Of a stretch of DNA of 64,000 nt, positions 45,147 through 62,167 are shown in pieces (position 1 is the first letter of the stretch; every line of letters starts with the position of its first letter). The translations under genes and the position numbers were made by a program. Location: positions 2,089 through 66,088 of the forward strand of contig CAZKVI010000003.1 in NCBI GenBank assembly GCA_964556185.1, given 5' to 3'. The stretch is from an uncultured Methanosarcinales archaeon. Its GTDB lineage: Archaea > Nanobdellota > Nanobdellia > Woesearchaeales > DSVV01. The notes under the pieces were generated by a model, which worked only from the letters and a program-made list of their open reading frames with translations, was not told where the DNA came from and made no database searches.

Positions 45147-45224
45147 ATCCAGTTTCTTTGGCCAACTTGGCCTTTTTTCTTTTTCAATATTCATTTTATA
45201 TATTGGCTCTATAAAGAACCATTA

Positions 45225-45725: not shown

Positions 45726-45766
45726 CCATCAATAAATTTATTAATACATCAATCAATAATCTTTCT

Positions 45767-46648: not shown

Positions 46649-46755
46649 TGGTAATTATATAACATTAAATATTGTTTATCACAACATCTGATGTTAAACT
46701 AAAGTTCTCTAAAATTAACAGATTGTTAATAACAAAGAACAAGTGAAAAACTTCT

Positions 46756-47571
46756 CTACTTAAAGTCATGTTCTTTGTATTTCTTAAGAAGTCCTAAAAT
46801 TTCCTTATCTTTAATATCTTTCAATTTTAAAATAATATTATTTATATCATCGCCTTCTTCACTATTGTCTTCTTTTCTAAAACTTATTGAAATTTTATCA
46901 TCTTGCCAAATAAAATATCTCAATATCTCAATATCTTTATCATTAGAGTTGTCCTCTAGCCATTTTCCAAGCTTTTTCTTTAATTTAAATAAATCTTCAT
47001 CATATTTTGGTGTTTTAGTATAAAGTGCTCTAGCGAAACCCTCTAATCCAATAATACTATTAAGTTTTTTCTTTGTTTTTCTTGAATAATATTCATAGTC
47101 TGTTCTACTAATTGGTTTTTCCTCAATAATCCTTTTAATTATTTGTTTTTCTTTTTTTGTGAAAATTTGAGATAGCCACATCTGTAGATTTCTCTCTGCA
47201 TAGATTTTTTGCTTGTCAATTATTAATTCAGATTTTTTTAATCTAGCTAATTGCAATTCAAACTCTTGTTTAAATTCATCATAATCAAGATTTCCTTTAT
47301 TACTAAACTCAGGCAATTGTTTATCAATATTATTCTCTTCAAATATTATTCTTGTAAAAGCTAATATTTGGCTAAAAATCTTTTTTTTAGGTGTTTTTTG
47401 ATATAATTCTTCAATATCTAAGTCATACTTATAAATTAGAAATGGAATAGCTTTCAAATATCTTATATTCTCAGTCTTCAAAATAGATAAAATTAGTTTT
47501 TCTTTGCTTTTATCTGCACCAAGCATCCTGTAGCCTGCATCAGTAAGCTTTTTCTCTATTGCTGTTGCCAT
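46756..47571 (-). CDS. hypothetical protein, second gene of the cassette operon
   Basis: Overlaps the upstream nucleotidyltransferase gene by 16 nt. No recognised domain. Confidence 0.4.
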   Translation of the reverse strand: MATAIEKKLTDAGYRMLGADKSKEKLILSILKTENIRYLKAIPFLIYKYDLDIEELYQKTPKKKIFSQILAFTRIIFEENNIDKQLPEFSNKGNLDYDEFKQEFELQLARLKKSELIIDKQKIYAERNLQMWLSQIFTKKEKQIIKRIIEEKPISRTDYEYYSRKTKKKLNSIIGLEGFARALYTKTPKYDEDLFKLKKKLGKWLEDNSNDKDIEILRYFIWQDDKISISFRKEDNSEEGDDINNIILKLKDIKDKEILGLLKKYKEHDFK

Positions 47572-48176
47572 TTTTTAACCTCATTTATTATTTCTTTATT
47601 TTCCATATTCCATTCTTTAAATTTTATTTCAATTAGATCTAATAATTTTTGTTTATAATTTGCAACAATAGATGTTTGCATAGTTTCTTTATATCTACTA
47701 ACAAGTTCTTTAAGATCTATTTTCTCTTTTTCAAAAATTCTTTTTACATCATCAAAGTCTCTAGAATCACCTCTTGCTAATTTACTTATTATAACATCAT
47801 ACAAAGATAATGTATAAAGTTCAATCTTACCAAATGATTGAATATGTTTGGATTTTTCTAAACAATCTGGAAGTAAATCAGTTCCTAAAATATATGAACT
47901 ATGAAAGACATCAAAAGCCAAACCTTCTTGTGTAATCCAGCGAATATGTCCTGTTTTCTCAAATCCAATCTGTTCAAATATCTTACAGATATATTTGTAT
48001 TCTTTATCTGAGTGGATATTAATATCTATGTCTAATGTTGATTGTTTGATATTAAGTATTGTTAATGCTGTTCCACCTAATGCATACATCTTAGTTTTCT
48101 TTTCAATAAATTTTGATAGGGATTCAAGTAATTCAAAGAGTTCATTAGCATTAATTTCTTTTTTATTGTGAGGCAT
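47556..48176 (-). CDS. AbiEii/DUF1814-like nucleotidyltransferase (putative toxin/abortive-infection component)
   Basis: YALGGTALTILNIKQSTLDIDINI matches the GGTAL...S.DIDf nucleotidyltransferase motif. Confidence 0.45.
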   Translation of the reverse strand: MPHNKKEINANELFELLESLSKFIEKKTKMYALGGTALTILNIKQSTLDIDINIHSDKEYKYICKIFEQIGFEKTGHIRWITQEGLAFDVFHSSYILGTDLLPDCLEKSKHIQSFGKIELYTLSLYDVIISKLARGDSRDFDDVKRIFEKEKIDLKELVSRYKETMQTSIVANYKQKLLDLIEIKFKEWNMENKEIINEVKKWQQQ

Positions 48177-48544
48177 ATTACTAATAAAACAGCTTTAGTA
48201 TATAAATCTTCCTATTTTTGTACGTATATATACAATTATTGTATAAAAAACTCACAAAGAAGGCTATAACAATGACTATGCAGATGGATTGTTGAAGTTG
48301 GAAGAATGAATATAAACAAAGAAAACTAGCAAATAATGTAGTGGTTAACTTTTTAATAAATTACTATTTAATATGTAAAATGTAGTGGTTATATATTTCT
48401 CTAAATTAGGTGTCTACATTTATGGTGTTTTGTAGTCACCCATATATTGATTATTTATTTCTAACTAGTTCAATTAATTTCATTCTTACTTTGGTTCAAA
48501 TTAAGACCAAAAAAGTTCTTCTTAAGATTTGAGTATGGATTGTA

Positions 48545-48600
48545 AGAAAAAAACGCCACGACCCGGACTTTCAAACCACAGGTTTGAACCTTTTGGTTTT
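48545..48600 (-). repeat. degenerate partial duplicate of the tRNA-Ser 3' end with an internal hairpin insertion
   Basis: tatcccggttcaaa...tccgggtcgtggcg versus the tRNA 3' end tatcccggttcaaatccgggccacagcg. No valid cloverleaf. Confidence 0.5.
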
Positions 48601-48649
48601 TGAACCGGGATACAATATGAGCTTTGCTCATATGTACAAAAAATTAAAA

Positions 48650-48763
48650 CGCTGTGGCCCGGATTTGAACCGGGATATCCCGGAGGAAACAAGCTAAACA
48701 GTGCATGCCTTGAAAATACATACATTTCCAGGCTTGCGCAGTACCAGGTTGTGCCACCACAGC
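48650..48763 (-). tRNA. tRNA-Ser(GGA) with about 30-nt anticodon-loop intron and long variable arm
   Basis: Acceptor GCTGTGG/CCACAGC, anticodon stem CAAGC/GCTTG, loop CU-GGA-A, T-arm CCCGG-TTCAAAT-CCGGG, discriminator G. Confidence 0.55.
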
Positions 48764-48772
48764 AAAAAAAGG

Positions 48773-48897
48773 TGGCAGTGGCGGGATCTGAACCCGCGGC
48801 TTCTAGATCGCCCAGATATAAAGTTTAATCATCGGCATGAGCCTCATCACTCAAATCTTATGAGTCTAGCACTCTAACCAGGCTGAGTTACACTGCC
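48773..48897 (-). tRNA. tRNA-Met/Ile2(CAU), elongator type, with 50-nt intron
   Basis: Acceptor GGCAGTG/CACTGCC, D-stem ACTC/GAGT, anticodon stem CTAGA/TCTAG, loop CU-CAU-AA, T-arm GCGGG-TTCAGAT-CCCGC. Intron contains GUGAUGA. Confidence 0.7.
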
Positions 48898-48914
48898 TTA
48901 ATTATTGTTTAGAA

Positions 48915-49334
48915 CTAGTGGTCTTTTAAAAAGCTTACTATCTTTTCCTGTACAGATTCAGCTTCTCCTTCTGCATACTGGCCACCTGGCCAATGTTGAT
49001 AACCATCATTTGGTATCCTTGGAATAACATGAATATGAGCATGGAATACTATTTGTCCAGCTACTGCTTTGTTATTCATTATCAAATTAACACCAGATGC
49101 TTCAGTAGATTCAAGTATTGCAGTAGATATCTTCTTAGCAACAGCAATCATATTCTTAGAATCTTCCTCTGGCAAATCAACAATATCAGCATAATGCTTT
49201 TTTGGAATAACTAATGTATGCCCAGGATTATTTGGAGCAATATCTAAGAATGCAAACACATTGTCGTCTTCATAGACTTTTTTACAAGGAATATCTCCTT
49301 TGATAATTTTGCAGAATATACACTCATCTGTCAT
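48915..49334 (-). CDS. HIT-family (histidine triad) nucleotide hydrolase
   Basis: CIFCKII...; HAHIHVIP histidine triad. Confidence 0.9.
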   Translation of the reverse strand: MTDECIFCKIIKGDIPCKKVYEDDNVFAFLDIAPNNPGHTLVIPKKHYADIVDLPEEDSKNMIAVAKKISTAILESTEASGVNLIMNNKAVAGQIVFHAHIHVIPRIPNDGYQHWPGGQYAEGEAESVQEKIVSFLKDH

Positions 49335-49375
49335 TGTAATCTCTAGGAGAATATAGTTGTTAAAAAATGTTTTGG

Positions 49376-49879
49376 TTAATAACTACCTTGCATTTCTTTG
49401 ATTTTTTCTTTAAGAACTTCGATTGTTCGTGCATTATCTTGTTGTTGTAATAATGTACCACATTCAGGACACTTAAACTCTAACTCTGTACTTTGCTCAA
49501 AATCTAATCTAGCGCAAGCATTTGTGCATAAAAAGAAACATCCTTTGTTTGATTCTTCTCTTTCAAGTCTTTCTTGTAGTTTTTCTAAGCGAGTACTATG
49601 AATAACAGAAGCAACATCTTTAAGTCTTTTAGGAAAATAAGTCCAATAACTGATATAATAACCTTTTTTAGAGTCTTTTTTTCTTTTATATGTAGCAAGA
49701 TTCATACTATGCATTCTATATAAGATATTTCTTACTTGATGGATCTCAATCTCAGTTTTCTCAGAAATTATAAACTCAGAAATATTTTTCCTATTTTTAA
49801 GGAAATCTACAATAGGTAAACAGTCTTCACCGATTGCATTTGTTATTGTATCTTGAGCCATCTTATTTGTCATACGCAT
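49376..49879 (-). CDS. tfe: transcription factor E (TFE / TFIIE-alpha homologue)
   Basis: N-terminal winged helix plus C-terminal zinc ribbon CFFLCTNACARL...CPECG. Confidence 0.8.
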   Translation of the reverse strand: MRMTNKMAQDTITNAIGEDCLPIVDFLKNRKNISEFIISEKTEIEIHQVRNILYRMHSMNLATYKRKKDSKKGYYISYWTYFPKRLKDVASVIHSTRLEKLQERLEREESNKGCFFLCTNACARLDFEQSTELEFKCPECGTLLQQQDNARTIEVLKEKIKEMQGSY

Positions 49880-50042
49880 AAGTCTCTTCCCCCATTCTCG
49901 GAGCGACAGAGTCCTATGTTTTGGAGTCTTGTTTTACTTCCCCAACAACACATTACTCTCAATTCCCCGTATAGTTCCTCTGGTAACTTATATAAAAACT
50001 TTTTCATTGTGTCATATATACGTTTTCTGAGGTTTCTGTTTA

Positions 50043-50122
50043 TACTAAAAGTGATTAATCACTTTTGTATATACAAAAGTGTGAAATAATGAAATTATTT
50101 TGCACTTTAAGTATATATATAG
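50043..50122. promoter_or_regulatory. palindromic operator/promoter module, copy B (AAAAGTGATTAATCACTTTT; CACTTTTGTATATACAAAAGTG; AAAGTGTGAAATAAT-gaa-ATTATTTTGCACTTT)
   Basis: Three overlapping perfect or near-perfect palindromes sharing AAAGTG/CACTTT ends. Homologous to 43209..43300. Confidence 0.6.
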
Positions 50123-50269
50123 CGAAGTTAGAAGTTCAACAAGAACTTCTCATTATTACCCATATACTGGATAATAACCTTCATATCAATATTAATGCCA
50201 TAGGTTATATATAAACCTTTCGGTTATGTAGTTACTTTAGAGGAGTTAATATATAAAAGAAAGTATATA

Positions 50270-50341
50270 TGGACTCACCGAGATTTGAACTCGGAGTCTC
50301 CCCGAAGCCAACGGGGTGCGATACCATTTCGCCATAAGCCC
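50270..50341 (-). tRNA. tRNA-Ala(GGC), no intron
   Basis: GGGCTTA acceptor with the G3:U70 Ala identity pair; D-stem GCGA/TCGC; anticodon stem CCCCG/CGGGG; loop UU-GGC-UU; T-arm CCGAG-TTCAAAT-CTCGG. Confidence 0.8.
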
Positions 50342-50508
50342 ATACAATGCTAGCTACATATATGCTTATATATAATTTACGCTAATTTCTCACTATATGT
50401 AGTACTTGTACACATTACATAACTTTCTAATAAAGCAATCCTAATATACAAATCATAACCTTTTTATATCACCTTAGTCATACTTTGACTTAACACGGGG
50501 GTGTTTAA

Positions 50509-50895
50509 ATGGTAATTTTATTTGATAGATTCAATATGCCGGATGATGTTTTCGAAGTCATCTTCGCTACACCACAACAGAAAATAGTTGGTAAACTTCT
50601 AATTAAAATGATAAAAGAAAAAGGTGGAGAAATTACTAAAACAGAAATGAGCACTTTTGCAATGGCTCTCCATGAAGGAAGACTAGTAACAAATGAAGTT
50701 GATGATCCACAATACAAAAATAAAGAAGTCAAACTAAGTTATAACAAAAGACAATTCTACGACAGAATATTGACTCCAATGAAAGGTATGGGTTTAATCG
50801 ACTACGATCTTTACAAAAAGACATACAGAATCTCAGACAAATTCAACAAAGCAATGATAAAAGTAGGATTAATGTGGATGAGAGAGATAAGGTAA
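50509..50895 (+). CDS. hypothetical protein
   Basis: 128-aa ORF. Confidence 0.3.
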   Translation: MVILFDRFNMPDDVFEVIFATPQQKIVGKLLIKMIKEKGGEITKTEMSTFAMALHEGRLVTNEVDDPQYKNKEVKLSYNKRQFYDRILTPMKGMGLIDYDLYKKTYRISDKFNKAMIKVGLMWMREIR

Positions 50896-51297
50896 TCATC
50901 CACCAATCTTTTTATCTATATCTTCAGCTATTTCTTTAAGACTATCAAAAGTCCTATGCATATCCTTCTCTAACTCATCAATTAATCTACTCAAGTTGTG
51001 AACTCTTAGAATATAACCTTTCTTTTCCTGCACTACAATCCCTGAATCCATTAACTTATGCAAGTGATGCACTACAGTGCCCCTAGATAATTGCAATCTA
51101 ACAGCTAATCCATCACTAGAAATAGGCTCATCTTTCTTTGCTTGCTTTAATAATTCAATAAATATTCTAAAACATGATCGATCTTTATCACGTAAACTAA
51201 ATAATCCAAGAGAAGTACCAAACCACTGCAATTTCTCATTAATATTACTTCTCACAGGCCTTCTAATCTTGATTATAGTGATTCTTCGTTGCTCCAT
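50896..51297 (-). CDS. ArsR-like winged-helix transcriptional regulator
   Basis: CFRIFIELLKQ...SDGLAVRLQLSRGTVVHHLHKLMDSGIV. Confidence 0.5.
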   Translation of the reverse strand: MEQRRITIIKIRRPVRSNINEKLQWFGTSLGLFSLRDKDRSCFRIFIELLKQAKKDEPISSDGLAVRLQLSRGTVVHHLHKLMDSGIVVQEKKGYILRVHNLSRLIDELEKDMHRTFDSLKEIAEDIDKKIGG

Positions 51298-51340
51298 ATT
51301 AGAAATTGATGTAGAAGATGTTTATAAATATTCTTTAATT

Positions 51341-51583
51341 TTACTGTAAATCTTTATGATATAAAGCAATAATATAAATGACTCTTTTTTCAATCCTATA
51401 TGATAATCTAAATGGAGGAATATACAACTCTCTTGTCCCTTTTCTATTATACATCATAGGTTTGCCAATCTCAGGATTATCTTTTATTTTAGAAATTTGT
51501 TTGATGATTTTCTGTTTAAGGGCATTATTCTTAATCTTACTAAATTCCTTCTTAAATAAAGAATCAAAAATAACTTCTACCAC
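51341..51583 (-). CDS. relE: RelE/ParE-family toxin
   Basis: 80 aa; NRKGTRELYIPPFRLSYRIEKRVIYIIALYH. 7-nt overlap with the upstream antitoxin gene. Confidence 0.7.
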   Translation of the reverse strand: MVEVIFDSLFKKEFSKIKNNALKQKIIKQISKIKDNPEIGKPMMYNRKGTRELYIPPFRLSYRIEKRVIYIIALYHKDLQ

Positions 51584-51843
51584 TTTTTCATTTCCTCAAG
51601 AAAATCATCAAATTCCATTTTAATGCCTTTACCTTCTTCAATTCTCTTCCAAGCTTGTTCTGTTCTTTTTGCAAATTCTAGATCTTCTTTTAGATTTTTC
51701 TCTAATTCTGTAGCTTTCTTCATAATTAATTGATGGTCATTCTTAATAATGATTAATTTATCTCCTTCATGAAGATCTCCTCTCATTTCATTAGGAATTA
51801 CAACTTGGCCTTTTGAACTCATTCGTGTTATAGCAACATCCAT
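51577..51843 (-). CDS. AbrB/MazE/SpoVT-type antitoxin
   Basis: MSSKGQVVIPNEMRGDLHEGDKLII. Confidence 0.7.
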   Translation of the reverse strand: MDVAITRMSSKGQVVIPNEMRGDLHEGDKLIIIKNDHQLIMKKATELEKNLKEDLEFAKRTEQAWKRIEEGKGIKMEFDDFLEEMKKW

Positions 51844-51906
51844 ATTATCACCAAGTAAGATTAATCTTACTTAGTATATAAAGTTTACGGTTTTACACGT
51901 AAACTA

Positions 51907-51923
51907 AGAAGTCGAAGACTTCT
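51907..51923 (-). terminator. GNA-triloop hairpin AGAAGTC-GAA-GACTTCT followed on the minus strand by a U-rich tract; probable terminator of the 51961..52386 gene
   Basis: Perfect 7-bp stem. The same hairpin occurs at 28277..28293, and a variant at 53170..53188. Confidence 0.45.
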
Positions 51924-51960
51924 GTATCTTTCTATTTTAGTATATAAATTAGTATAATAT

Positions 51961-52386
51961 TTACTGTAACCAAATAGGCAACATTGGACTAACTATTGGA
52001 GCTACTAATTCCCATGCATATGGTGCTAATATGATAATAACTCCTAAAATCAATGTATGATACCAACGTTCACCAACTTTTCCTGCAATAGCTGCTGCAC
52101 CAGCAATTTTAAACATTGCAATAATACCTATCACAACCCTAATACCAAATTCTACAAACCAATCAGCTGTAAAAGCTAAATTCATCCATCCAAGAACAAA
52201 ACTAATATTCATACTTACAAAAACAAAGAATAATGTAAATGGCAGAGCATGCAAAGCATGAGTAAACCAACCCATTCCTGCTTCATCACTATGTACAAAC
52301 ACAACTTCAATAAGCCCAATCAAAATACCCATAACAATAGCAGGCCCTATAACATATGTTTGTACAACTATCTCTTCTGTCACCAT
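51961..52386 (-). CDS. polytopic membrane protein
   Basis: 141 aa, four hydrophobic helices. Confidence 0.4.
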   Translation of the reverse strand: MVTEEIVVQTYVIGPAIVMGILIGLIEVVFVHSDEAGMGWFTHALHALPFTLFFVFVSMNISFVLGWMNLAFTADWFVEFGIRVVIGIIAMFKIAGAAAIAGKVGERWYHTLILGVIIILAPYAWELVAPIVSPMLPIWLQ

Positions 52387-52469
52387 CTTGTCAATAATTC
52401 TGAAGATTTTCCTATAAAAACTTTTCTATTGTGACAATATTTAAATATGAGTAATCTGCAAATATACCT

Positions 52470-53072
52470 ATGCAGTGGAAAAAACTATCTCCATACATAT
52501 TATCTTTCTTTGTGTTACTTACAGCAGTTTATGCAAGAACTAGGTTTCCAACAGGAGAATTAAGAGATGTTATGAATGTATTTGGAGATATTTACAACCA
52601 AGCACCATATTTAGTTGATGCATTAGTATTATTAATTATATTTGTACCTTTAGCAAGGAAGATCCTAGGAGAAAGACTAGGTAAAGTCCCAGCAACAGGC
52701 TTAGGATTTTTATTAGTGCTTTCAGTTATTGTTTCAGAAGCAAAATTCGATTATAGTATTATTAGGGATTTTAGTATTCCAGCAGTTATAATCTTATTAT
52801 CAATGTTTGGAATTAGTTTATTTGTTATGTTAAAACAATTTGATGCAAATACTTGGTTAGCAGTCAGTGCTGGTTGGGTAGCTGTTGTCGTAGTATCTTA
52901 TTTTGCAGTCCCAGATGTTGTTGAAATGATACAAAGAGATTATGAAGTCATTTGGTGGTTTTTAATTGTATTAACTGGATTTTTTATACTTGCATTTGTT
53001 TTTAGTATGTTCTTTGGCGGTGGCGGAGGGGGCCATCATGAACCAGCAGCTCCAGCAGCACCTCATCCTTAA
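52470..53072 (+). CDS. membrane protein with Gly/His-rich C-terminus (paralogue of 53136..54143)
   Basis: TM helices; ...FFGGGGGGHHEPAAPAAPHP tail; IYNQAPYLVDAL motif shared with the next gene. Confidence 0.4.
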   Translation: MQWKKLSPYILSFFVLLTAVYARTRFPTGELRDVMNVFGDIYNQAPYLVDALVLLIIFVPLARKILGERLGKVPATGLGFLLVLSVIVSEAKFDYSIIRDFSIPAVIILLSMFGISLFVMLKQFDANTWLAVSAGWVAVVVVSYFAVPDVVEMIQRDYEVIWWFLIVLTGFFILAFVFSMFFGGGGGGHHEPAAPAAPHP

Positions 53073-53135
53073 TTACTTTTAGTATAAAATCAAACTAAAC
53101 ATTTATATATACTATTTCTTAGAAATTATACTATT

Positions 53136-54143
53136 GTGGGTAATCAATTAAACTTTCCGAAGGAAAGCAAGAAGTCGATGAGACTTCTGTGGAAGAGGAT
53201 AATATTAGTTTTATCTATATTTCTTGCTACATTGCAGACTACTCTAGCTTATTCTTGGAGTGAGTTTGTAAGCACAACAATGAAAATATACAATGCTCAA
53301 GCAGATTTCTTTTCTAATATATTTAATGCAGCACCTCCTTTATTCCATGCACTCTTTTATTGGCTTTTTATCTATATTGCAATCTTCAGAAAATATGTAA
53401 AACCAAAATTAGGAGCAGGTTTTGCATTGGGAATGCCTGTTTTATTAGCTCTTGGGGTTGTTACAGCTGAACGCTTAACAGGAGTAAGCTTTTTTTGGAT
53501 GTTTTTAATCTTTTTTGGAATATATAAAACATTGTTTGTAATTCTTGCATTCAGAAAAGCTAATTTTCCAGTAATTTTAATTGGATCATTAGCTTTTATT
53601 ATTGCATTTGTTCTTTTATTATTTTACCAACCAGCATGGTTTATTGATTTTAGACAAGATCATCCACTTATTATGTTATTAGGATATATTTTGTTTGCAA
53701 TCTTTTCAATAATTACTTTATTTGGTGCTTTTAGATACATAATTGGTGGAGGTTATAGTAATATTCAATGGCCACCTCCATTTAGACAAACATATAAAGA
53801 TTTATATGGTGATCCAGGATCCTCCTCCTCTTCAGGTCAATCAACACCAAATATGTCAAGATTACATAGAAAAGCTGAAAAGTTTCTTGCAAATTCTGCA
53901 GAATACGCTGCTGCAGAACAAAAGTATGCACAAATGAATGCATCACAAAGAGCAAAAGTAGAAAAAGATATGCAAGATAGTCGAATTTCTTTGATAGCAA
54001 GGGGAACTGCAATAAGAAATCATAAAAAATATGAAAGAGATGTTCCACAAGATGTTAAACATAGATTTGAAACAGCATTTAATGCTATTATGACTCAAGG
54101 TGGCTCACATGGTGGAGCAGGTGGCGGAGGCCCTGGCCATTAA
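53136..54143 (+). CDS. membrane protein with Gly/His-rich C-terminus; probable start at the ATG at 53178
   Basis: MRLLWKRIILVLSIFLA... TM helices; tail GGSHGGAGGGGPGH. A hairpin overlaps the start codon. Confidence 0.4.
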   Translation: MGNQLNFPKESKKSMRLLWKRIILVLSIFLATLQTTLAYSWSEFVSTTMKIYNAQADFFSNIFNAAPPLFHALFYWLFIYIAIFRKYVKPKLGAGFALGMPVLLALGVVTAERLTGVSFFWMFLIFFGIYKTLFVILAFRKANFPVILIGSLAFIIAFVLLLFYQPAWFIDFRQDHPLIMLLGYILFAIFSIITLFGAFRYIIGGGYSNIQWPPPFRQTYKDLYGDPGSSSSSGQSTPNMSRLHRKAEKFLANSAEYAAAEQKYAQMNASQRAKVEKDMQDSRISLIARGTAIRNHKKYERDVPQDVKHRFETAFNAIMTQGGSHGGAGGGGPGH

Positions 54144-54176
54144 CCAGGACATTAAAATAAAGAAAAGAGGGAATAA

Positions 54177-55388
54177 ATGGGAATAAGAGATCTTTTTGAA
54201 TCACATCTACAAAGAGTCTTTGAAGATGCAATGGCTAAAGTAGAAGAAGATCTAGAATACTTAGAACAAGAAATAGCTAAAATAAAAGCTAGAGCAGAGA
54301 AAAAAAGACAATTAATTTTACAAGCACAACAATCTGGTCAATATACAGAAGCTCAAGCAGCAGAGCAATTAAGATTTGTAAATGGCAAAGAAGAAAGAGA
54401 ACTAAATAGATTAAGGCAAGGTTTGGATTTAGTTGATGGAACTACCCCAGAAAAAGAAACAGCAGCAAAAGCAGAAATCCCTCGAAGAAAAGAATTTGAT
54501 TCTTTAAGTCATCAAGTTGAAGGTTGTGCAGATGATGCAGAACATACTTTAGCTAAAACTAGAAAATATCTAAATTACTTAAAATCACTTTTGGTTCTAA
54601 GAGTTAGAGAAACACATGAAATTGAAGCAGATATGCAAAAAATAAGAACTCTACTTTCAAATTTTCAACATGCAACGGAATCTGAACAATTAAAACAAGA
54701 TTCAACAAGAATGCAAAAAATAAAACACAATGCTCTTAAAGAATTAGAGGTACTTATAATGCAAGCATCTCATTTTCTTAAATTAGAAGAAAGAGCAGAG
54801 AGAAAAGTAGTAAGAATTGAGAGAAGAATCTTTAGCACAGAAGCAGATTTTGAAAAAGCAGACCAACAATTACAACAATTTATTCTTAAAACAGAATATT
54901 TTATTAAACAAGCATGGCATAATCAACAAGCTTATCAAAAAGCAGAACAACAATTTGGTCAATTAAACTCAGCTTTACATTCCCTGAATGATGATTTTAT
55001 TAATGTTTATAGGCCATTATTAGCAATGACAAAAAAAGTTTATCTAAGAGAACAAAGAATGGAATCTGCATTAAAACAAGTAAGGAACATGGTAGAAACA
55101 TTAGATACTTCATCTAATCAATTACAAAATGCACAAACTTTTAGAAGATTATTTGAACAACTTAGTTTAATTGAACAAGTTTTACAACAAGAAATGGGTA
55201 CTGGTTCTATCCAAGAGTTCTTTCCAGGAATACAAGGAGAAGTGCGAGCATTAAGAAGAGCTGAACAAGATATAGATAGAATGATCCAAGTTCTTGAACA
55301 AATAAATTCTATATTTGATGAATTAAGAAAAATGGAACTTGAAGCAATACAACAACAATCTCCTGAATTAATAGAGCTAGCAGCATAA
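54177..55388 (+). CDS. Gln/Glu-rich coiled-coil protein
   Basis: 403 aa of predicted coiled coil; 33-bp spacing to the upstream gene. Confidence 0.4.
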   Translation: MGIRDLFESHLQRVFEDAMAKVEEDLEYLEQEIAKIKARAEKKRQLILQAQQSGQYTEAQAAEQLRFVNGKEERELNRLRQGLDLVDGTTPEKETAAKAEIPRRKEFDSLSHQVEGCADDAEHTLAKTRKYLNYLKSLLVLRVRETHEIEADMQKIRTLLSNFQHATESEQLKQDSTRMQKIKHNALKELEVLIMQASHFLKLEERAERKVVRIERRIFSTEADFEKADQQLQQFILKTEYFIKQAWHNQQAYQKAEQQFGQLNSALHSLNDDFINVYRPLLAMTKKVYLREQRMESALKQVRNMVETLDTSSNQLQNAQTFRRLFEQLSLIEQVLQQEMGTGSIQEFFPGIQGEVRALRRAEQDIDRMIQVLEQINSIFDELRKMELEAIQQQSPELIELAA

Positions 55389-55389
55389 A

Positions 55390-57348
55390 ATGAAAAACAA
55401 ACTTATTCTTATAATTTGTATCTCAATCTTTTTAATAATTCCATTATTTTCCACAATATCTTTTGCACAAGCTGGCCATTTAAAATTATTAGCAGTAACT
55501 TCTGAGACTAAAGGTGTAGAAGCAAACCTTGATTTAAGACTAATGCCAGGTACTGGAAGTGTTTTTATTGCAACATCTCCTTTAACAAAAATAGATACAC
55601 AATTATCTACAAGATTTGCTAAAGATATTGCATGCAAATTCCTCGAGAAGGATTGTTCAAATTTAGATTTCTTTTATACAATAACAAGTAATGCATCTAT
55701 TGTTGGTGGCCCAAGTGCAGGTGCAGCAATAAGTGCTTTAACAATAGCCTTACTTGAGGGCTATGAATTAGATGAAAGCTTTACAATAACAGGAACAATT
55801 AATTCAGGTGGTCTAGTCGGAAGTGTAGGTGGCTTAAAACCTAAAATAGAAATTGCTTCAAAAATTGGAGTAAAGAAAGTTTTAATACCTGCAGGAGAAA
55901 GATTTATCATAAATGAAACAATTATTTCTTTAAACACCACTGGATCAAATGCAACATTAAATTCATCAATCAATAATATTAACAATACAAACACTAATAA
56001 TAACACAACAAACACCAATTCAACACTTACTGCAACTATAAACAATACAATTGATTTATACGAATTTGGTAAAGAATTTGGAATAGAAGTAAAAGAAGTT
56101 GCAAATTTATATGATGTTATGTATGAATTTACAAATATAACTTATGAACAACTCTCAGGAGAAATCACACCAGATGATTGGTATATTGAAACAATGAGAA
56201 ATATTTCTAATGATCTTTGCGAAAGAAGCAATAACTTACAAAATGAACTTACTACACCTGAAAACACATCTAGTGATTACTTGTTTTACTCAACAGGATT
56301 AAATTTAACACAAAATGCAGAATCTGCATTATCTGAACAAGATTATTACTCAGCAGCATCATTTTGTTTTGGAGCAGCAGGTAAATTTGGTTATTTATTT
56401 CTAAAAAAACAAAATATGACAAACAATGAAACCTTAATAATACTTAATGAAACAAATGGTTCTATTGATTCAATAAGACAAAAAATAAACAATATTAATT
56501 TACAAACAATCACAGATATTCAAACTTATGTTATTGTAAATGAAAGATTAAAAGAAGCAGAGAACACATTAACTCTTGTTAATGATGCTCTTCAAGAATA
56601 TATTAATATGACTTTAACTTTAACAAATGCTAATATAACAGAAACAAATAACACAAAACAACAACTTGAACAAGTTCATGATATACTTTTACAAAAATTA
56701 GCTTATTCAATAGAAAGATTAAATAGTGCAGTTGCCTGGAGTAGCTTTTTCAATAAACCAGGTTCTACTTTTAACTTTAGCCCAGAATCTATTCATCAAT
56801 CATGTATAATAAAACAAAAAGAAGTAGAAGAAAGAATAAACTATATTCAAATTATTACTCTATTAGGTTTAGAAGGTGTAAAACAAGGTTTAGATGATGC
56901 AAAACAAGAAGAAAAAAGAGGTAATTTTATTCTTTGTCTTTTCAAAGCATCTAAAGCAAAAGCAGAAGCAGATACTGTAATGAGTATGATTGGAGCTAAA
57001 GAAGACTCAATTCAAGGTATTATTGATACAAGATTAACATTAGCTACAGATGTTATACTAAAACAACAACGCCAAGCTAGTTTCCCAATATTTGGTTATA
57101 GTTATTATGAATATGCAAAGACATTACAAATTGATGATCCTAGTTCTGCTTTGATATATTCTCATTATGCTCTTGAATTAAGTAACCTTGATATGTACTT
57201 TGAAAAAGAGCTTGATTTAGCTACTTTAGATACAGAGCTAACTAAAGATCCTGGCAATACATTCTATTTTATAATTGGATTTATTCTAGGAATATTAGTA
57301 ACAATACTCTATGTAATGAATTTTAAACCAAAGAAATCAAAAAAGTAA
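55390..57348 (+). CDS. secreted Lon-like (S16) peptidase-domain protein with Asn/Thr-rich linker and C-terminal TM anchor
   Basis: Signal peptide; GGPSAGAAISALTIALL (Lon catalytic Ser motif) ... IGVKKVLIPAGE; N-x-S/T-rich region; C-terminal FYFIIGFILGILVTILYV. Confidence 0.55.
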   Translation: MKNKLILIICISIFLIIPLFSTISFAQAGHLKLLAVTSETKGVEANLDLRLMPGTGSVFIATSPLTKIDTQLSTRFAKDIACKFLEKDCSNLDFFYTITSNASIVGGPSAGAAISALTIALLEGYELDESFTITGTINSGGLVGSVGGLKPKIEIASKIGVKKVLIPAGERFIINETIISLNTTGSNATLNSSINNINNTNTNNNTTNTNSTLTATINNTIDLYEFGKEFGIEVKEVANLYDVMYEFTNITYEQLSGEITPDDWYIETMRNISNDLCERSNNLQNELTTPENTSSDYLFYSTGLNLTQNAESALSEQDYYSAASFCFGAAGKFGYLFLKKQNMTNNETLIILNETNGSIDSIRQKINNINLQTITDIQTYVIVNERLKEAENTLTLVNDALQEYINMTLTLTNANITETNNTKQQLEQVHDILLQKLAYSIERLNSAVAWSSFFNKPGSTFNFSPESIHQSCIIKQKEVEERINYIQIITLLGLEGVKQGLDDAKQEEKRGNFILCLFKASKAKAEADTVMSMIGAKEDSIQGIIDTRLTLATDVILKQQRQASFPIFGYSYYEYAKTLQIDDPSSALIYSHYALELSNLDMYFEKELDLATLDTELTKDPGNTFYFIIGFILGILVTILYVMNFKPKKSKK

Positions 57349-57658
57349 TATCTATATTAGTTATTCTAAAAAGCTCTAAATAATCTTCTTTTAACTAGAA
57401 ACGGTTAAAAAACCCCGCAAACACTCCCGAAGGAATGTTTGCGCGGGAAAAAGAGGTGATCGTGATTGTTATCTGGCCAATGGCCAATAAATCCCCAAAT
57501 TAGCTTAAGATACCTACTTCATTTATTAAGACCATAATCATATTTAAACCTTTCCATTCTAGAGTGGTGACATTTGTTTAGGAGTTTAGAGTGAACTTGG
57601 GATACATACTTCATGTTACCGGAAAATTTATATACCTTATTTCAGAGAAATAAGACTT

Positions 57659-58192
57659 ATGGCCACTGGTAAGAATGTCGACAGAAGTTTATTACAAGTT
57701 GTACGTTATAGGGGTATTTTTGATATAGAAGCAGTCTATAAAGCTGTATATGATTGGTTGAGATCAAGAGGTATGGAAGTCCAAGAAACAAAATTCAAGA
57801 CATATGATAGGGCATATGGAAGAGAACATCAAATTAAATGGAGTGCTTGGAATAATGAAACTGACTTTGTAAAAAATTGGATATTTATCACATGGAGATT
57901 TATTGATGTTGTAGAATTAGAAGTAGTTAAAGATGGAAAAAAGAAAAAGTTAAGTAAATGTCAAGCAGATATTAGAATTCAACACGCAATGGAGTTTGAT
58001 TATAGTGAACGTTTTACAAAAACAGTGTACCAAATCCGCGCATTGGAATTTATTACAGGTTGGTTATTTAGAAAAAAGATAGATACTTTATGGGAAGATA
58101 AGTTAAGGTTTAAATGTTATGAATTGCAAAATGTTGTAAAAGAAACATTAGAAGCTCAAACAAAAGGTAATGAGCATTATGATGTATGGTAA
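57659..58192 (+). CDS. hypothetical protein, tandem paralogue A
   Basis: Shares VYDWLRSRG / VVKDGKKKKLSK motifs with 58215..58715. Confidence 0.4.
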   Translation: MATGKNVDRSLLQVVRYRGIFDIEAVYKAVYDWLRSRGMEVQETKFKTYDRAYGREHQIKWSAWNNETDFVKNWIFITWRFIDVVELEVVKDGKKKKLSKCQADIRIQHAMEFDYSERFTKTVYQIRALEFITGWLFRKKIDTLWEDKLRFKCYELQNVVKETLEAQTKGNEHYDVW

Positions 58193-58214
58193 TTAGATAA
58201 ACAAAGGTATTAAT

Positions 58215-58715
58215 ATGGTCGAGAGAAGAATTGTTGTAGATACAATGAGGATGCATTACCAAGGTCTTCTTAATGTAGTTGAATTTATGGAATTTGTAGA
58301 TCGTTGGCTTCGTGAAAAAGGTTATTATAAAAAAATTGGCAGAACAGATGAAAAAGTTTTCAAAGAAAACAGACAAGTAGAAATTGAATGGGAACCTTGG
58401 AAAAAAGTTGATGAAAATGCAAAAATAGTTATTCAAATGAAATTCTTATTCACAAATGTAAAAGATGTTGTTGTAGAAAAAGACGGAATGAAGAAAAAAC
58501 TTCAACAAGCCAAGATCTCAGTTACAATGATGGGACTTATGGAATCAGACTGGGAACACAAATGGGAAAAAAGACCTTTTTACTTCTTATTCTTCTCAGT
58601 TATTGATCAGTTTGTCTGGAAAATTCATTCTGATAAGTACTTTGGTTTAGTAGCAGAAGACTGCACAGAACTAAGAAACGAAATGAAAGCTTTCTTGAAT
58701 TTGTATAGGTTCTGA
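58215..58715 (+). CDS. hypothetical protein, tandem paralogue B
   Basis: FVDRWLREKGYY / VVEKDGMKKKLQQ align to paralogue A. Confidence 0.4.
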   Translation: MVERRIVVDTMRMHYQGLLNVVEFMEFVDRWLREKGYYKKIGRTDEKVFKENRQVEIEWEPWKKVDENAKIVIQMKFLFTNVKDVVVEKDGMKKKLQQAKISVTMMGLMESDWEHKWEKRPFYFLFFSVIDQFVWKIHSDKYFGLVAEDCTELRNEMKAFLNLYRF

Positions 58716-58772
58716 GTCACAATACAAACATTTTTAAATATTCTAAATTTCATTTGAAAAAGACCAGATATT

Positions 58773-58938
58773 TGTGGGGGTAGCCCGTAAGAAGATTCTT
58801 TGGGTTCCCTAGAGCAAAGTCTGGTCAAATGCGCAGGACTTAAGATACACTGAAGACAGCCTTCACGGCAAAGTCTTTGTTTTGAATTAGACATCCTGTC
58901 ACTTAGTGTGTTCGGGGGTTCGAATCCCCTCCCCCACA
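58773..58938 (+). tRNA. tRNA-Leu(UAA)-like gene with two introns (about 29 nt near the D-arm and about 48 nt in the anticodon loop)
   Basis: Acceptor GTGGGGG/CCCCCAC. AGTCTGGTCAAATGCGCAGGACTTAAGA matches the archaeal Leu D-loop and anticodon arm; TCCTG is found 48 nt on; long variable arm; T-arm GGGGG-TTCGAAT-CCCCT; discriminator A. 166 nt = about 87 mature + 78 intron. Confidence 0.5.
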
Positions 58939-59036
58939 TTTTATTCTTTATTTTCTATTTTATGTGCGTACTGCTTTGCAAAGCAAATGCAGTACTCGCT
59001 GACTTTTTCCCAAGTTTTTACGAACGTAAAAAGCTG

Positions 59037-59058
59037 GTGGGGATCATCCTCCCCCACA
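59037..59058 (+). repeat. degenerate duplicate of the tRNA-Leu 3' end (ggtggggATCATcctcccccaca), separated from the tRNA by two strong hairpins (58968..58995, 59015..59032)
   Basis: Compare the tRNA 3' end gggggTTCGAATcccctcccccaca. Hairpins GTACTGCTTTGC-AAA-GCAAATGCAGTAC and TTTTTACG-AA-CGTAAAAA. Confidence 0.55.
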
Positions 59059-59083
59059 TTTTCTTTTTGATTTTGATTAAGAA

Positions 59084-60844
59084 TTAAGGTTCAGTTGGTT
59101 CATCTAGTGATGCACTTGTTTCTAAGCCACTTCTTCTTAAACCTTTAAGAGTATAAGTTGGATCTTCAAGATAACTCTCACACTGTGCTTTAATTCCAAG
59201 AGCAGCCATAAGCATTTTATCTTTATCATCGTAAATTTCTCTAATAGAATCTCTATCTTTCATTGTTCTTGGATTAAATACTTCTGATAAAATTCCATCA
59301 AAAGAAAATTCATCTGCTGATTCAGATTGTTCTGTTACTTCACCAAATCCTCCTTTTGCTTTATAAGTTTCATAAAGCCTATGGATTTTATAAACTTTAT
59401 AATGGCTTAAGGAAGAAGAATCACTTGTATGGTAAGAACACAAATGATCAATTATTTGGTTTGTTTCTTCTAAAGTTTTTCTTACTAATACAAAGTTTTG
59501 AACATCTGGAATTTCACGACCTTCTTCGGCTTTCCATCTTCTGTAAGCATTTACAAGAATAACATTTTTGTATAATCTGTATAATCTTTCAAATCCTGCA
59601 TAATATTTTGTTCCTTTTCTAACATTTATTATTGGGTGTTTTTCAGCTAATGCATTTGCTCTTTCCTTTAATTGAGTTCTTATATCTCTTGTCCCATGTA
59701 AATCTTGTCCACTATATGCTGCAATAATTTCATCATAAGTTATTTCTTCAATTGACTCACCATCATCAGTTAATCTTTTTCTTTTCTTACTTCCATGTTC
59801 TCGTCTGCGAATTTCATCAGTATTTGCATGACAATCTGCAAACTTAACCATTATAGCTCTTTCTATATCTTCTTCTTTTATTGCTCTCTCTTTTCCTCCC
59901 CAACAAATTATTCCATCCCAGTCACTAGGTCTAAATATTTTGTTTACAGAATCATAATAATTTTGTTTAGTCCCCTTTGTCAAAAGATAACTAGTAACAG
60001 CAACTCCTCCAATCATTTCAACCATTGTACTATCAATAGCACCACCAAGGTCTTTCATGTAATTTTCTAAACAATTATAAATCCCATGATCGACAAAAAT
60101 ATCAGCTACTCTTTCCCCTTTTGTCATTAATTTACCTCTAACTTCAGATTTCTCTGAGAAACCATGTTTTCTTATTTCATCCCTCTTTTCTTGGATAAAT
60201 TTCTTCTTCTCAATAATTTCTTCTTCAACTCCCTCTAGTTCTTCCATTCTTTCTGCAACCTTTGCTTTATAACCATCTCTTCTTTTCCCTTCTAATTGTT
60301 TAATACTTCTTGTTAAGAAACCATGTCTTTCTATCAATCCACCAAGTTCTTCATGTTCAGCCATATTATAAATTCTAACAGTGTCTCTGATATAATGATC
60401 AATAAATTCTTCAGCAGTATCATGATATAATGCTGCAATAATTGTTGTAAGATCAGTAACACCAGCTTTGATGAGTGTTCTTGTAACTCTTAGTGGATGT
60501 TGTACAAAAGGTGCTCCTGTTAATTTTCTATCTGGTGCAATTCTATATTTCTCAAAACTATCATACAATGCAACTTTTAAGAATGTTTGTTCATCATCTT
60601 CTAAAGCAGAATAAGCTTCTTCTTGACCTCTATAAAGCATTCCAACAACGCTTTCGAGTTTTTCTTCTTTGTCTTTAAAATCAACTTTAAAGCTATCATC
60701 AGAATCTTTGTTTGTAAAGAAAGCAACCATTCCATGATCTATTCGACTTAAATAAAGCTCATTTCTTCCAATAAGCCTTTCAAGATTTACATGGCCACTA
60801 TGTGGACTTGGACTAACACCCATCTTCTCTTCAAATAATCTCAA
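59084..60844 (-). CDS. HD-domain phosphohydrolase related to the RelA/SpoT (p)ppGpp hydrolase domain, with N- and C-terminal extensions
   Basis: PFVQHPLRVTRTLIKAGVTDLTTIIAALYHDTAEE matches the Rel/SpoT HD signature HPL..A..L......D..T..AALLHD..ED. Confidence 0.6.
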   Translation of the reverse strand: MRLFEEKMGVSPSPHSGHVNLERLIGRNELYLSRIDHGMVAFFTNKDSDDSFKVDFKDKEEKLESVVGMLYRGQEEAYSALEDDEQTFLKVALYDSFEKYRIAPDRKLTGAPFVQHPLRVTRTLIKAGVTDLTTIIAALYHDTAEEFIDHYIRDTVRIYNMAEHEELGGLIERHGFLTRSIKQLEGKRRDGYKAKVAERMEELEGVEEEIIEKKKFIQEKRDEIRKHGFSEKSEVRGKLMTKGERVADIFVDHGIYNCLENYMKDLGGAIDSTMVEMIGGVAVTSYLLTKGTKQNYYDSVNKIFRPSDWDGIICWGGKERAIKEEDIERAIMVKFADCHANTDEIRRREHGSKKRKRLTDDGESIEEITYDEIIAAYSGQDLHGTRDIRTQLKERANALAEKHPIINVRKGTKYYAGFERLYRLYKNVILVNAYRRWKAEEGREIPDVQNFVLVRKTLEETNQIIDHLCSYHTSDSSSLSHYKVYKIHRLYETYKAKGGFGEVTEQSESADEFSFDGILSEVFNPRTMKDRDSIREIYDDKDKMLMAALGIKAQCESYLEDPTYTLKGLRRSGLETSASLDEPTEP

Positions 60845-60893
60845 TTAATATTTAAATCTTCCCAACATTAACCACTATAAAGTGGAATAGAAA

Positions 60894-61373
60894 TTAAGCA
60901 ATATTCCACATGTCATCGCCTACATGGTGGATATTCTCAATGACTTTCCCAGAATTCATTCCTAACATTTCCTCAGAATTAAACAAAACCTTACCAATTG
61001 CCAGAGCTTTTCCATGTGTTTCATCAACAATAACTACAAACTCACCAACTTTAATTCCTTCATCAATCTTTGTAATACCTGGTCTCATAATGTCTGCACC
61101 AGATGTTACAAACTTTATTGCACCCATATCAACTGTAATATTTTTCAATAACTCTAAATTGTCCATAACCAATTTCAAACAAGGAATTAAAACATCATCT
61201 TGAAAAAAGAAATACAACTTTTGATTTACAAAAACTAAATTATTTTCTTTCTCAACTTTATCTTTTTTACTTAGAAAGTTCTCTTTTCCATACAATTCAA
61301 AAATCTTAGAATTCAATTCTTTAATTTCTGACTTATTAAGCTGTTTCCTCATAAGGTACAACCTCAATCTCAA
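60894..61373 (-). CDS. PUA-domain RNA-binding protein
   Basis: MGAIKFVTSGADIMRPGI ... VVIVDETHGKALAIGKV. Confidence 0.6.
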   Translation of the reverse strand: MRLRLYLMRKQLNKSEIKELNSKIFELYGKENFLSKKDKVEKENNLVFVNQKLYFFFQDDVLIPCLKLVMDNLELLKNITVDMGAIKFVTSGADIMRPGITKIDEGIKVGEFVVIVDETHGKALAIGKVLFNSEEMLGMNSGKVIENIHHVGDDMWNIA

Positions 61374-61746
61374 TTTTCATCTTATGATCTTTTGCTTTTT
61401 CTCTAAATTCATCAGAAAAATCTATAGAAGCTTTGTTTGTATTAAATGCAAGTGTTCTATTATCTAAGAAATCAGATTTTCTAACAACAAATTCATGATC
61501 ATCGTCGTAAAACTCATTATATTCTGCAATTACTTCTTCAACAACATCATCTGCAGTAATTTTAATTAATAATTTTCCACCATTACCAACTTTCTCACCA
61601 ACTTTTTGCAATTCTTTCTTATCAAAAGTTGATTTAATTCCACAAATACAATTACCTTTCCATGTTACAAAATCATCTTTTGTAAATTCAAAAGTAGTTT
61701 CGTGGTTAGCTCTAATTTCTCTATGTCCATATGCAAAGAATTTCAT
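61336..61746 (-). CDS. hypothetical protein
   Basis: 136-aa ORF overlapping the start of the PUA gene. Confidence 0.35.
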   Translation of the reverse strand: MKFFAYGHREIRANHETTFEFTKDDFVTWKGNCICGIKSTFDKKELQKVGEKVGNGGKLLIKITADDVVEEVIAEYNEFYDDDHEFVVRKSDFLDNRTLAFNTNKASIDFSDEFREKAKDHKMKIEIEVVPYEETA

Positions 61747-61799
61747 AAAATAAATTAATTATGTGTTAGTTATAAACTTTCCGGTGTTTTTGTCGTTAT

Positions 61800-61995
61800 T
61801 TTAGTTACCATCAATTTACGAGGCTCTTTAAGTTTTATATGAACAAGCAGAGGGGGTTGCCCCATCCGGGGAGATGCTGCTCTTTGAATTAAGCATAGAA
61901 AGCTGAGTCGATGGTAACTCAATAGAATTATGAAAAAAGTCATGGCCCGTTTCAACAATTCTGTGGGGTGGGGGTTTAGAATTAAGATCAGTATC
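61800..61995. ncRNA. GC-rich structured intergenic region (9-bp closing stem GTTACCATC/GATGGTAAC, GGGG-TTG-CCCC and GGCCCG...CGGGCC stems); candidate ncRNA of unknown class
   Basis: GC content and stems read from the sequence. No RNase P or SRP consensus recognised. Confidence 0.25.
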
Positions 61996-62101
61996 TACGG
62001 GCCTGACCTCTAATCTATATTATAGTTAAACTAGTATATAAATGTTACGTTTTTGTATACTGGTGTGGTTATTCTATATTTAAAGAGTATATCTTCACTA
62101 T

Positions 62102-62133
62102 AAAGTGATTAATATAACGAAAGGTTTATATAC
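62102..62133 (+). promoter_or_regulatory. AAAGTGATTAAT half-site immediately upstream of BRE/TATA (cgaaaGGTTTATATA) for the gene at 62168
   Basis: Shares the half-site with the palindromic modules at 43209 and 50043. Confidence 0.45.
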
Positions 62134-62167
62134 ACCCTACAGATTACGTTTTCAAGGAGTTTAGAAA

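Follow-up and report, generated by a model that had tools for sequence, protein, structure and literature searches.

Does a protease gene that directly follows genes for rare membrane and coiled-coil proteins form one system with them, or do two separate entities share a locus? This question is raised by four consecutive genes, here called ORF1 to ORF4, in a 64,000-nt stretch of the archaeal contig CAZKVI010000003.1 (the window, by which we mean the whole stretch; all coordinates are window positions). We consider it likely that the locus holds two things: an autonomous surface protease of the Lon type, encoded by ORF4, and a separate rare membrane/coiled-coil module, to which ORF1, ORF2, ORF3 and a small gene on the opposite strand (m141) belong. 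The four same-strand genes described by the first-pass annotation are all present and are separated by gaps of 63, 33 and 1 bp. Their predicted layouts are as follows.

52470-53072, plus strand: ORF1, 200 amino acids (aa); signal peptide, ecto segment of about 25 aa, five transmembrane (TM) helices, Gly6-His2-Pro/Ala tail
53136-54143, plus strand: ORF2, 335 aa, GTG start (alternative ATG at 53178); the same membrane core, a Gly-rich stretch, a basic helical C-terminal domain of 139 aa, Gly/His tail
54177-55388, plus strand: ORF3, 403 aa
55390-57348, plus strand: ORF4, 652 aa; signal peptide, Lon fold, helical Cys-containing domain of about 340 aa, C-terminal TM helix, basic tail

With a score of 36.1 bits (E 6.6e-9), ORF4 clearly exceeds the 21.1-bit cut-off of the Pfam Lon_C model (PF05362), and its best sequence match in the PDB is the protease domain of A. 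fulgidus LonB (E 2e-12). The aligned catalytic residues, Ser109 and Lys152, are 43 residues apart, the same spacing as in LonB. The earlier reading of ORF4 was that of a Lon catalytic motif without an ATPase domain, and the conservation of its Ser and Lys in homologues had been named beforehand as the point on which that reading could fail. Both residues are invariant in 30 of 30 homologues and in all 85 alignable sequences of 86 family members, each from a different genome; with a Lon_C score above the cut-off, an invariant dyad and no AAA+ module, the reading stands. The AlphaFold2 model of ORF4, built with 30 homologues, has a mean predicted local distance difference test (pLDDT) score of 82.5 and displays a Lon protease fold that begins at residue 25, directly after the signal peptide. 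The parts of the protein map onto the DNA as follows.

55714-55716, plus strand: codon of catalytic Ser109 (GPSAG), which aligns with the Ser in the GDSAS motif of A. fulgidus LonB
55843-55845, plus strand: codon of Lys152, the counterpart of the catalytic Lys in the alignment with A. fulgidus LonB
55918-56040, plus strand: Asn/Thr-rich insertion within a Lon-fold loop (aa 177-217), predicted to be disordered, sequon-dense
56176-57198, plus strand: all-helical domain (aa 263-603) with near-invariant Cys 277, 326, 472 and 516 and a FPILGYSYYEYA motif
57250-57321, plus strand: C-terminal TM anchor (aa 621-644), from the AlphaFold2 model and hydropathy (aa 625-643 by hydropathy)

For the helical domain of about 340 aa, neither a Pfam family nor a specific structural neighbour was found. 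The Asn/Thr-rich stretch, previously taken for an interdomain linker, turns out to lie inside the Lon fold: the pLDDT drops below 50 across aa 177-217 with Lon-fold strands on both sides, the profile alignment to LonB runs on past this stretch, and its length varies, the segment corresponding to aa 176-218 having a family median of 5 aa versus 44 aa with 8 sequons in ORF4 of the window. It is a loop insertion specific to the lineage and is probably glycosylated.

The signal peptide and C-terminal TM anchor assigned to ORF4 by the first-pass annotation are both predicted and are features of the family, with a hydrophobic signal-type segment at the N-terminus of 81 of the 86 relatives and a C-terminal TM in 83 of them. 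In ORF4, the C-terminal TM is followed by a basic tail, NFKPKKSKK. The protein carries 22 N-X-S/T sequons (9.3 ± 2.7 in shuffled sequences) and six Cys that are conserved in 84-85 of 85 family sequences; two of them, Cys277 and Cys326, are missing together in one broken copy. Because the signal peptide, the conserved Cys, the sequon excess and the basic tail after the last TM all fit such a location, the ORF4 ectodomain is predicted to lie outside the cell. With a signal peptide, conserved Cys and sequons present and no ATPase in the protein, ORF4 is predicted to act extracellularly and in an ATP-independent manner.

The ORF4 family is large. A database search returned more than 960 matches, the best 120 of which are full-length (563-686 aa), all carry PF05362 and are 37-44% identical to ORF4, except for an identical entry and two relatives at 76% and 57%; the organisms named among these 120 are Woesearchaeota or Nanoarchaeota metagenome-assembled genomes. 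A scan of one genome per species gave at least 517 relatives, mostly labelled Woesearchaeota or Nanoarchaeota. The 76%-identical homologue (P0002) resides on a fully syntenic contig and bears the JGI product name "predicted S18 family serine protease", an automated label that presumably denotes COG1750, predicted archaeal serine proteases. The neighbourhoods of 84 genes of this S16 family (L001-L083 among them) were compared over up to 10 kb on each side. A PLD-like protein is encoded downstream on the same strand as S16 in 50 of the 84 loci (e.g. L013 17154-18158), a small Zn-ribbon-like protein downstream in 25 and a topoisomerase upstream in 26. The PLD-like neighbour, a PLDc_2 protein with a lipoprotein-type signal, is a far commoner companion of S16 than any gene of the window, and it was not found in the part of the window that was compared (45001-64000). 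Downstream of ORF4, the window encodes the paralogues (E 5e-10) ORF5 (57659-58192, plus strand, 177 aa) and ORF6 (58215-58715, plus strand, 166 aa), neither of which has a Pfam family. L037 and L054 each have a single homologue of these downstream of S16, about 0.9 kb away, and ORF5/ORF6 may have been syntenic with the protease for longer than ORF1-3. In L059, an exported S16 gene (4946-6880, plus strand) is convergent with a canonical membrane LonB gene (6927-8801, minus strand, 624 aa) 46 bp away, and two Lon-type proteases thus coexist there.

ORF4 shares sequence, fold and dyad with the proteolytic domain of archaeal LonB and bacterial LonA (MEROPS S16; PDB 1z0w, 1xhk, 1rr9, 3k1j). Unlike these enzymes, it has neither the AAA+ ATPase module nor the LonB-type membrane insertion, is predicted to be exported and not cytoplasmic, and continues into an unrelated 340-aa helical domain and a C-terminal anchor. 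Assignment to canonical LonA or LonB was rejected, as the TIGR00764 LonB model scores 48 bits versus 516.6 and the LonA models score 28-29 versus 608-891, with only the protease part matched. MtaLonC (PDB 4fw9) and the C-terminal domain of BrxL (PDB 8eil) are cytoplasmic and, unlike ORF4, keep an AAA-like or AAA+ module. The best functional analogy is SepM of Streptococcus mutans, a membrane-anchored, extracellular, ATP-independent Lon-like S16 peptidase of 346 aa that trims the CSP-21 pheromone and has an N-terminal TM anchor and a PDZ domain before the Lon-like domain (PMC11197336). Both proteins present an ATPase-less S16 domain tethered to the membrane outside the cell, a location that is predicted for ORF4. 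ORF4 differs from SepM in the absence of a PDZ domain, in its cleavable-type signal peptide and C-terminal anchor, and in the helical domain that follows the Lon domain. Membership in the SepM family was also rejected (NF041438 reaches 22.1 bits against a cut-off of 200, over residues 98-168 only, and there is no Pfam PDZ match). Judged by its sequence, ORF4 is a new architecture within the known class of membrane-anchored ATP-independent Lon-like ectoproteases.

Archaeal stomatin/NfeD (STOPP) operons encode a membrane Ser-Lys protease beside a coiled-coil membrane scaffold. They offer a conceptual parallel only, since the predicted sidedness of protease and scaffold differs here, and no gene of the locus has a stomatin (Band 7) or NfeD Pfam match. 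In a review of archaeal membrane proteases, the S16 entry consists of the cytoplasm-facing LonB only (PMC4343526), and literature searches on COG1750, on archaeal exported Lon-like peptidases and on Lon or S16 in Woesearchaeota/DPANN found no description of the ORF4 family in the library covered. The assertion that the locus is not a described archaeal system is therefore correct insofar as no paper describing it was found, and overstated insofar as JGI already labels the 76% homologue and bacterial counterparts are known (SepM, PMC11197336).

The genes upstream of the protease belong to a different and much rarer family. ORF1 and ORF2 are paralogues, as was first proposed (30% identity over 164 aa, BLASTP E 6e-6; the two family profiles match each other reciprocally at 1e-9 to 5e-16), and their Gly/His tails are present as described. 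Neither could be assigned to a family of Pfam, NCBIfam, PHROG or PADLOC. When a profile of ORF2 and ORF1 was run exhaustively with HMMER against 1.84 billion representatives (E 1e-3), only 34 clusters of this five-TM (5-TM) family were recovered. Word-indexed searches returned five proteins for ORF2 and four homologues for ORF3, the identical entry included in each case (the other three ORF3 homologues are 82-87% identical); as these searches missed the orthologues on contig L082, they are unfit for judging whether ORF2 and ORF3 are orphans. The sole match of ORF1 in a metagenome scan was a 98% identical copy.

In the 5-TM family, the signal peptide is followed by about 25 aa of acidic ecto segment, then by the five TM helices and a variable tail; six hydrophobic segments are seen in 28 of 39 members. 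TM1 is followed by the conserved motif R-L-G-x4-G-x-G-L-x-L-S, and in about a third of the members a run of at least three Gly stands just after the last TM helix. Many members carry a coiled-coil tail of 200-500 aa (P0139, P0140, P0141, P0146), and the tail of P0160 (887 aa) contains a papain-type Peptidase_C1 domain (E 1e-12), which shows that modules of diverse kinds are anchored in the membrane by this family. The AlphaFold2 model of ORF2 has an overall pLDDT of 51.6, with 75-87 for the helices at residues 228-306 and 35-55 for the membrane core, which is too poor for a fold search.

The cluster as first drawn left out the most conserved partner of the 5-TM family, which is encoded upstream on the opposite strand.

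51961-52386, minus strand: m141, 141 aa, small membrane protein with four TM helices, divergent from ORF1

This protein has the motif FVH[SAQ]DE.G[ML]GW..H.LHA[LI]P and no Pfam, NCBIfam, PHROG or PADLOC match. Its homologues are encoded beside 5-TM genes in L082 (74% identity), L087 (40%, E 3e-32), L090 (E 4e-39) and L091 (E 8e-46). On this comparison, m141 and the two tandem 5-TM paralogues are the conserved core of the module. ORF3 contains 11.2% Q and 12.2% E, is helix-biased and has no signal peptide or hydrophobic/TM segment. Its Q/E-rich composition thus agrees with the earlier description, and the coiled coil itself we infer from this composition and a weak SMC-like match. Assignment of ORF3 to PspA/ESCRT-III, SMC or other named coiled-coil families was rejected, all matches being sub-threshold (Rop-like E 0.094; SMC 17 bits versus 567). 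The coiled-coil tails of other 5-TM members make ORF2 and ORF3 together resemble a split version of such proteins, a Rosetta-stone-type hint that ORF3 works with ORF2. Identity between the window and L082 ranges from 92% for a helix-turn-helix (HTH) regulator through 74% for m141, 61% for ORF1 and 57% for S16 to 32% for ORF3 (compared with a 456-aa protein) and 28% for ORF2.

Across the 28 six-segment members of the 5-TM family, the net charge is −1.8 for the N-terminal ecto segment, +2.2 for loop 1, −0.1 for loop 2, +1.0 for loop 3, −0.5 for loop 4 and +1.0 after TM5, and this alternation amounts to a positive-inside pattern with the N-terminus out and the C-terminus in. The stand-alone coiled-coil partners (ORF3, the 225- and 456-aa proteins of L082 and the 484-aa protein of L089), whose genes are tightly coupled to 5-TM genes, are devoid of a signal peptide. 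Because of the charge pattern and these partners, we take the Gly/His tails and the ORF2 helical domain to be most likely cytoplasmic, with the membrane between them and the Lon domain. In the L082 orthologues, the tails end in GGGSPPVVVPPSS and MGQAGGG, and their His residues are not kept. The notion of a His-rich membrane partner for the displayed Lon domain is thus not borne out, the His being absent in L082 and the tails being predicted on the opposite membrane face.

The linkage of module and protease was examined across the S16 loci. No tblastn match at E 1e-3 was found for ORF1, ORF2, ORF3, m141, ORF5 or ORF6 in 81 S16 loci. Family profiles run over the 84 loci matched ORF1-3 and m141 only in the window and L082; the ORF5 and ORF6 profiles were the exception, also matching downstream of S16 in L037 and L054. 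Family-wide 5-TM and m141 profiles again matched the window and L082 only, and 82 of the 84 S16 loci have no module within 10 kb. This disagrees with the proposal that the four genes are one obligatory co-conserved system, for which a co-occurrence check had been suggested: the same 82 loci are without a relative of ORF1, ORF2 or ORF3. The module is found without S16 in L086, L087, L088, L090 and L091, and in genome JAWABL01 the S16 gene (L060) and the module (L088) are on different contigs.

Within the lineage of the window, the module adjoins S16 in the window, in the fully syntenic P0002 contig and in L082 (S16 57% identical). Two distant contigs add to these. L089 encodes, on one strand, a 5-TM protein (351 aa), a coiled coil (484 aa), a 5-TM-like protein (171 aa) and S16; this S16 is 37% identical to that of the window, ranks 84th of 86 by score to the latter, and its nearest S16 relatives are without the module. 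The P0144 contig encodes a 145-aa protein on the minus strand, a 5-TM protein (356 aa), proteins of 251 and 136 aa, a 624-aa Lon_C protein and, downstream, a pair of 176 and 166 aa resembling ORF5/ORF6. Q/E-rich coiled-coil genes also stand directly upstream of S16 in L083 and L002; homology of ORF3 to their products was rejected (hhalign probability 0.6%). The partnership with the protease put forward by the first-pass annotation thus gains from 5-TM genes upstream of S16 in two further distant contigs (L089 and P0144) and loses from the absence of the module at most S16 loci, and we read the association as facultative but non-random. By a rough estimate, adjacency within three genes of S16 would arise by chance in less than 1% of cases per lineage for a genome of about 1000 genes. 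At least three divergent lineages have the module upstream of S16, which makes a functional link plausible, and real functional coupling of the two is a serious possibility, albeit the less probable outcome.

The arrangement of transcription signals is relevant to this question as well. The spacings of 33 and 1 bp are compatible with a single transcript, in agreement with the operon proposed for ORF2-ORF3-ORF4, whose cotranscription is plausible; a GAGGG ribosome-binding-like motif precedes ORF3, and ORF4 starts 1 bp past the ORF3 stop. Two TATA-like boxes were read directly from the sequence.

52440-52447, plus strand: TATA-like box TTTAAATA, preceding the ATG of ORF1 by 22 nt
53102-53111, plus strand: TATA-like box TTTATATATA, preceding the GTG of ORF2 (53136) by 25 nt

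A separate promoter of the leaderless type is probable for ORF1, and the TTTATATATA box is a candidate promoter of ORF2-ORF3-ORF4. The GTG at 53136 was accepted as the ORF2 start, as first annotated, because the N-terminal extension MGIQLNFPKESKKS that it adds is kept in the homologues P0126 and P0128 and because of the TATA-like box 25 nt upstream.

Several other explanations of the locus have to be weighed against these data. Were the four plus-strand genes one dedicated system, with the membrane paralogues and the coiled coil as obligatory partners that anchor the protease, activate it or present substrates to it, this would be in keeping with the tight ORF2-ORF3-ORF4 spacing (33 and 1 bp), with the one-strand order 5-TM, coiled coil, S16 that recurs in L082, L089 and the P0144 contig, with the large distance between the window and L089 S16 proteins within their family, and with the Q/E-rich coiled-coil genes directly upstream of S16 in L083 and L002. 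However, the 82 of 84 S16 loci without the module, the five loci that have the module without S16 (L086, L087, L088, L090, L091), the separate contigs in JAWABL01 (L060, L088), the predicted position of the tails on the membrane face opposite the protease and the lack of conservation of their His make such a system unlikely. At the other extreme, the module and the protease may be pure neighbours with unrelated functions, their adjacency being inherited or accidental. Each is far commoner without the other, ORF1 and ORF2 each have a TATA-like box of their own, and the genes have diverged from L082 at very unequal rates (from 92% identity for the HTH regulator down to 28% for ORF2). Yet of about 6 lineages that bear the module, 3 show the adjacency, always in one order and on one strand, which is hard to square with the rough chance estimate of less than 1% per lineage, and the adjacent lineages include some of the most distant S16 pairs of the family. 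We therefore regard mere neighbourhood as a credible but somewhat doubtful account.

Two further alternatives are highly improbable. ORF4 might be a catalytically dead Lon-like binding module, as in RadA/Sms and ComM, or it might face the cytoplasm. Neither agrees with a GPSAG Ser and a Lys 43 residues on that are invariant in 85 of 85 sequences, with a sequence closest to true Lon protease domains, or with the signal peptide, six conserved Cys, sequon excess and basic tail, which fit an outside location. The module or the whole cluster might also be cargo of an integrated mobile element or provirus. In L087, L090 and L091, the 5-TM/m141 module without S16 adjoins the gene for ribosomal protein L35Ae and then a phage-type integrase or resolvase (L087 15633-16466, L090 12425-13192 and L091 6485-7708, all on the minus strand), just downstream of the module; together with the patchy distribution of the module and with two features that the window has within 2.2 kb upstream, a tRNA-Ala gene and a toxin-antitoxin pair of the ParE/MazE type, this speaks for mobility, and there are hints that the module may move between genomes. 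On the other hand, m141 and ORF1-3 have no PHROG match, and the 5-TM family, m141, ORF3 and S16 have no relatives in 2.9 million viral contigs; the only PHROG match is that of the Lon-like segment of ORF4 to one family of unknown function. Integration at tRNA-Ala was rejected, since the gene and its flanks (50200-50420) are not repeated elsewhere in the window, apart from a promoter-like 15-mer. The window is AT-rich throughout (GC 26-35%) and the cluster shows no compositional break from its surroundings, and the synteny of the flanking housekeeping genes is retained in the P0002 contig. A defence system was rejected too: the single PADLOC match, to BrxL (PDLC02506), is marginal (E 0.0013) and covers the Lon part of ORF4, and eight neighbouring proteins gave no other defence-system match.

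We thus prefer the reading of an autonomous surface protease and a separate module that associate facultatively. Several points weigh against this reading or parts of it. The P0144 contig is known from gene sizes and Pfam labels alone, and the adjacency to S16 in the three lineages could be a product of ancient synteny and not of function. No homology was detected between ORF3 and the coiled coils upstream of S16 in L083/L002 or in L089, for which reason a "same role" of these proteins is positional only. Some 5-TM members have tails of kinds that normally occur outside cells (in L091 collagen-like GKDG repeats, in the 812-aa protein of L087 a beta-rich domain, in P0160 Peptidase_C1), which argues against a cytoplasmic tail, and the topology comes from hydropathy and charge rules only, the AlphaFold2 model of the ORF2 membrane core being unreliable.

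Under the preferred reading of two separate entities, ORF4 would be a Ser-Lys endopeptidase that is exported via its signal peptide and held on the outer face of the membrane by its C-terminal TM. It would be stabilised by disulfides, probably N-glycosylated, and would cleave or trim surface or secreted proteins of its own envelope or of a partner's. The helical domain may be the substrate-selecting or oligomerising part, taking the place of the AAA+ module of true Lon. The module of m141, ORF1, ORF2 and ORF3 would comprise a 4-TM protein, two 5-TM proteins whose Gly-rich linkers are in the cytoplasm, and a coiled-coil partner that is likewise cytoplasmic, and its most likely role is that of a membrane-anchored cytoplasmic scaffold. 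Any coupling, for example through co-expression or through positioning of the protease by intramembrane contacts, would not be required by the protease. A more ambitious proposal, in which m141, the 5-TM paralogues, the coiled coil and the ecto-S16 protein constitute a DPANN-specific trans-membrane apparatus whose scaffold positions or gates the protease, strikes us as quite improbable. Such an apparatus could act at a site of host contact or of division, and the fast evolution of ORF2 and ORF3 (28-32% identity versus 57-92% for their neighbours) would then be adaptation to partners.

Woesearchaeota and their relatives are uncultivated and genome-reduced and are regarded as dependent on other cells, a dependence in which surface proteins are likely tools. 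The ORF4 family is a widespread and uniform feature of the group, which makes it a tangible candidate for expression, for activity assays and for a search for substrates. The rare and unnamed membrane/coiled-coil module is here defined, and its boundaries are redrawn to include the opposite-strand m141. The payoff is modest in that one architecture is added to a known peptidase class and no long-standing question is resolved.

Some observations concern the surroundings of these genes. The archaeal character of the window is reflected in its TFE gene. A tRNA-Ala gene at 50269-50342 is the sole tRNA common to Rfam and ARAGORN; three long Rfam tRNA matches of 114-125 nt (29237-29356, 48650-48763 and 48773-48897, minus strand), which ARAGORN did not report, most plausibly represent tRNA genes with introns. 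The 15-mer CGAAAGGTTTATATA occurs twice in the window (50208-50222, minus strand, and 62118-62132, plus strand), the second copy 36 nt upstream of a gene starting at 62168, and it probably reflects the B recognition element (BRE)/TATA promoter consensus of this genome. Between the HTH regulator gene and m141 lies a pair of the ParE-toxin/MazE(AbrB)-antitoxin type (51341-51583 and 51577-51843, minus strand), which is absent from the syntenic P0002 and L082 contigs. L090 encodes a bacterial-type bifunctional transglycosylase/transpeptidase (PBP-like, 760 aa; 17883-20165, plus strand) on a contig that looks archaeal (L35Ae).

The ORF4-ORF5 spacer contains two noncoding blocks (57384-57460 and 57538-57573) that are near-identical in L082, while the flanking proteins share only 28-61% identity. 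Block 1 includes a GC-rich hairpin (57413-57447) followed by T6 on the minus strand, and block 2 reads as a BRE/TATA-like AAAGGTTTAAATA on that strand. The element, with a fold z-score of −3.1 and no Rfam family match, is a plausible small-RNA candidate of about 100 nt on the minus strand. Downstream of the cluster, a 586-aa protein (59084-60844, minus strand) has a weak RelA/SpoT-type HD domain, and a RelA_SpoT-domain protein is encoded nearby in L082 (1843-2772, minus strand).

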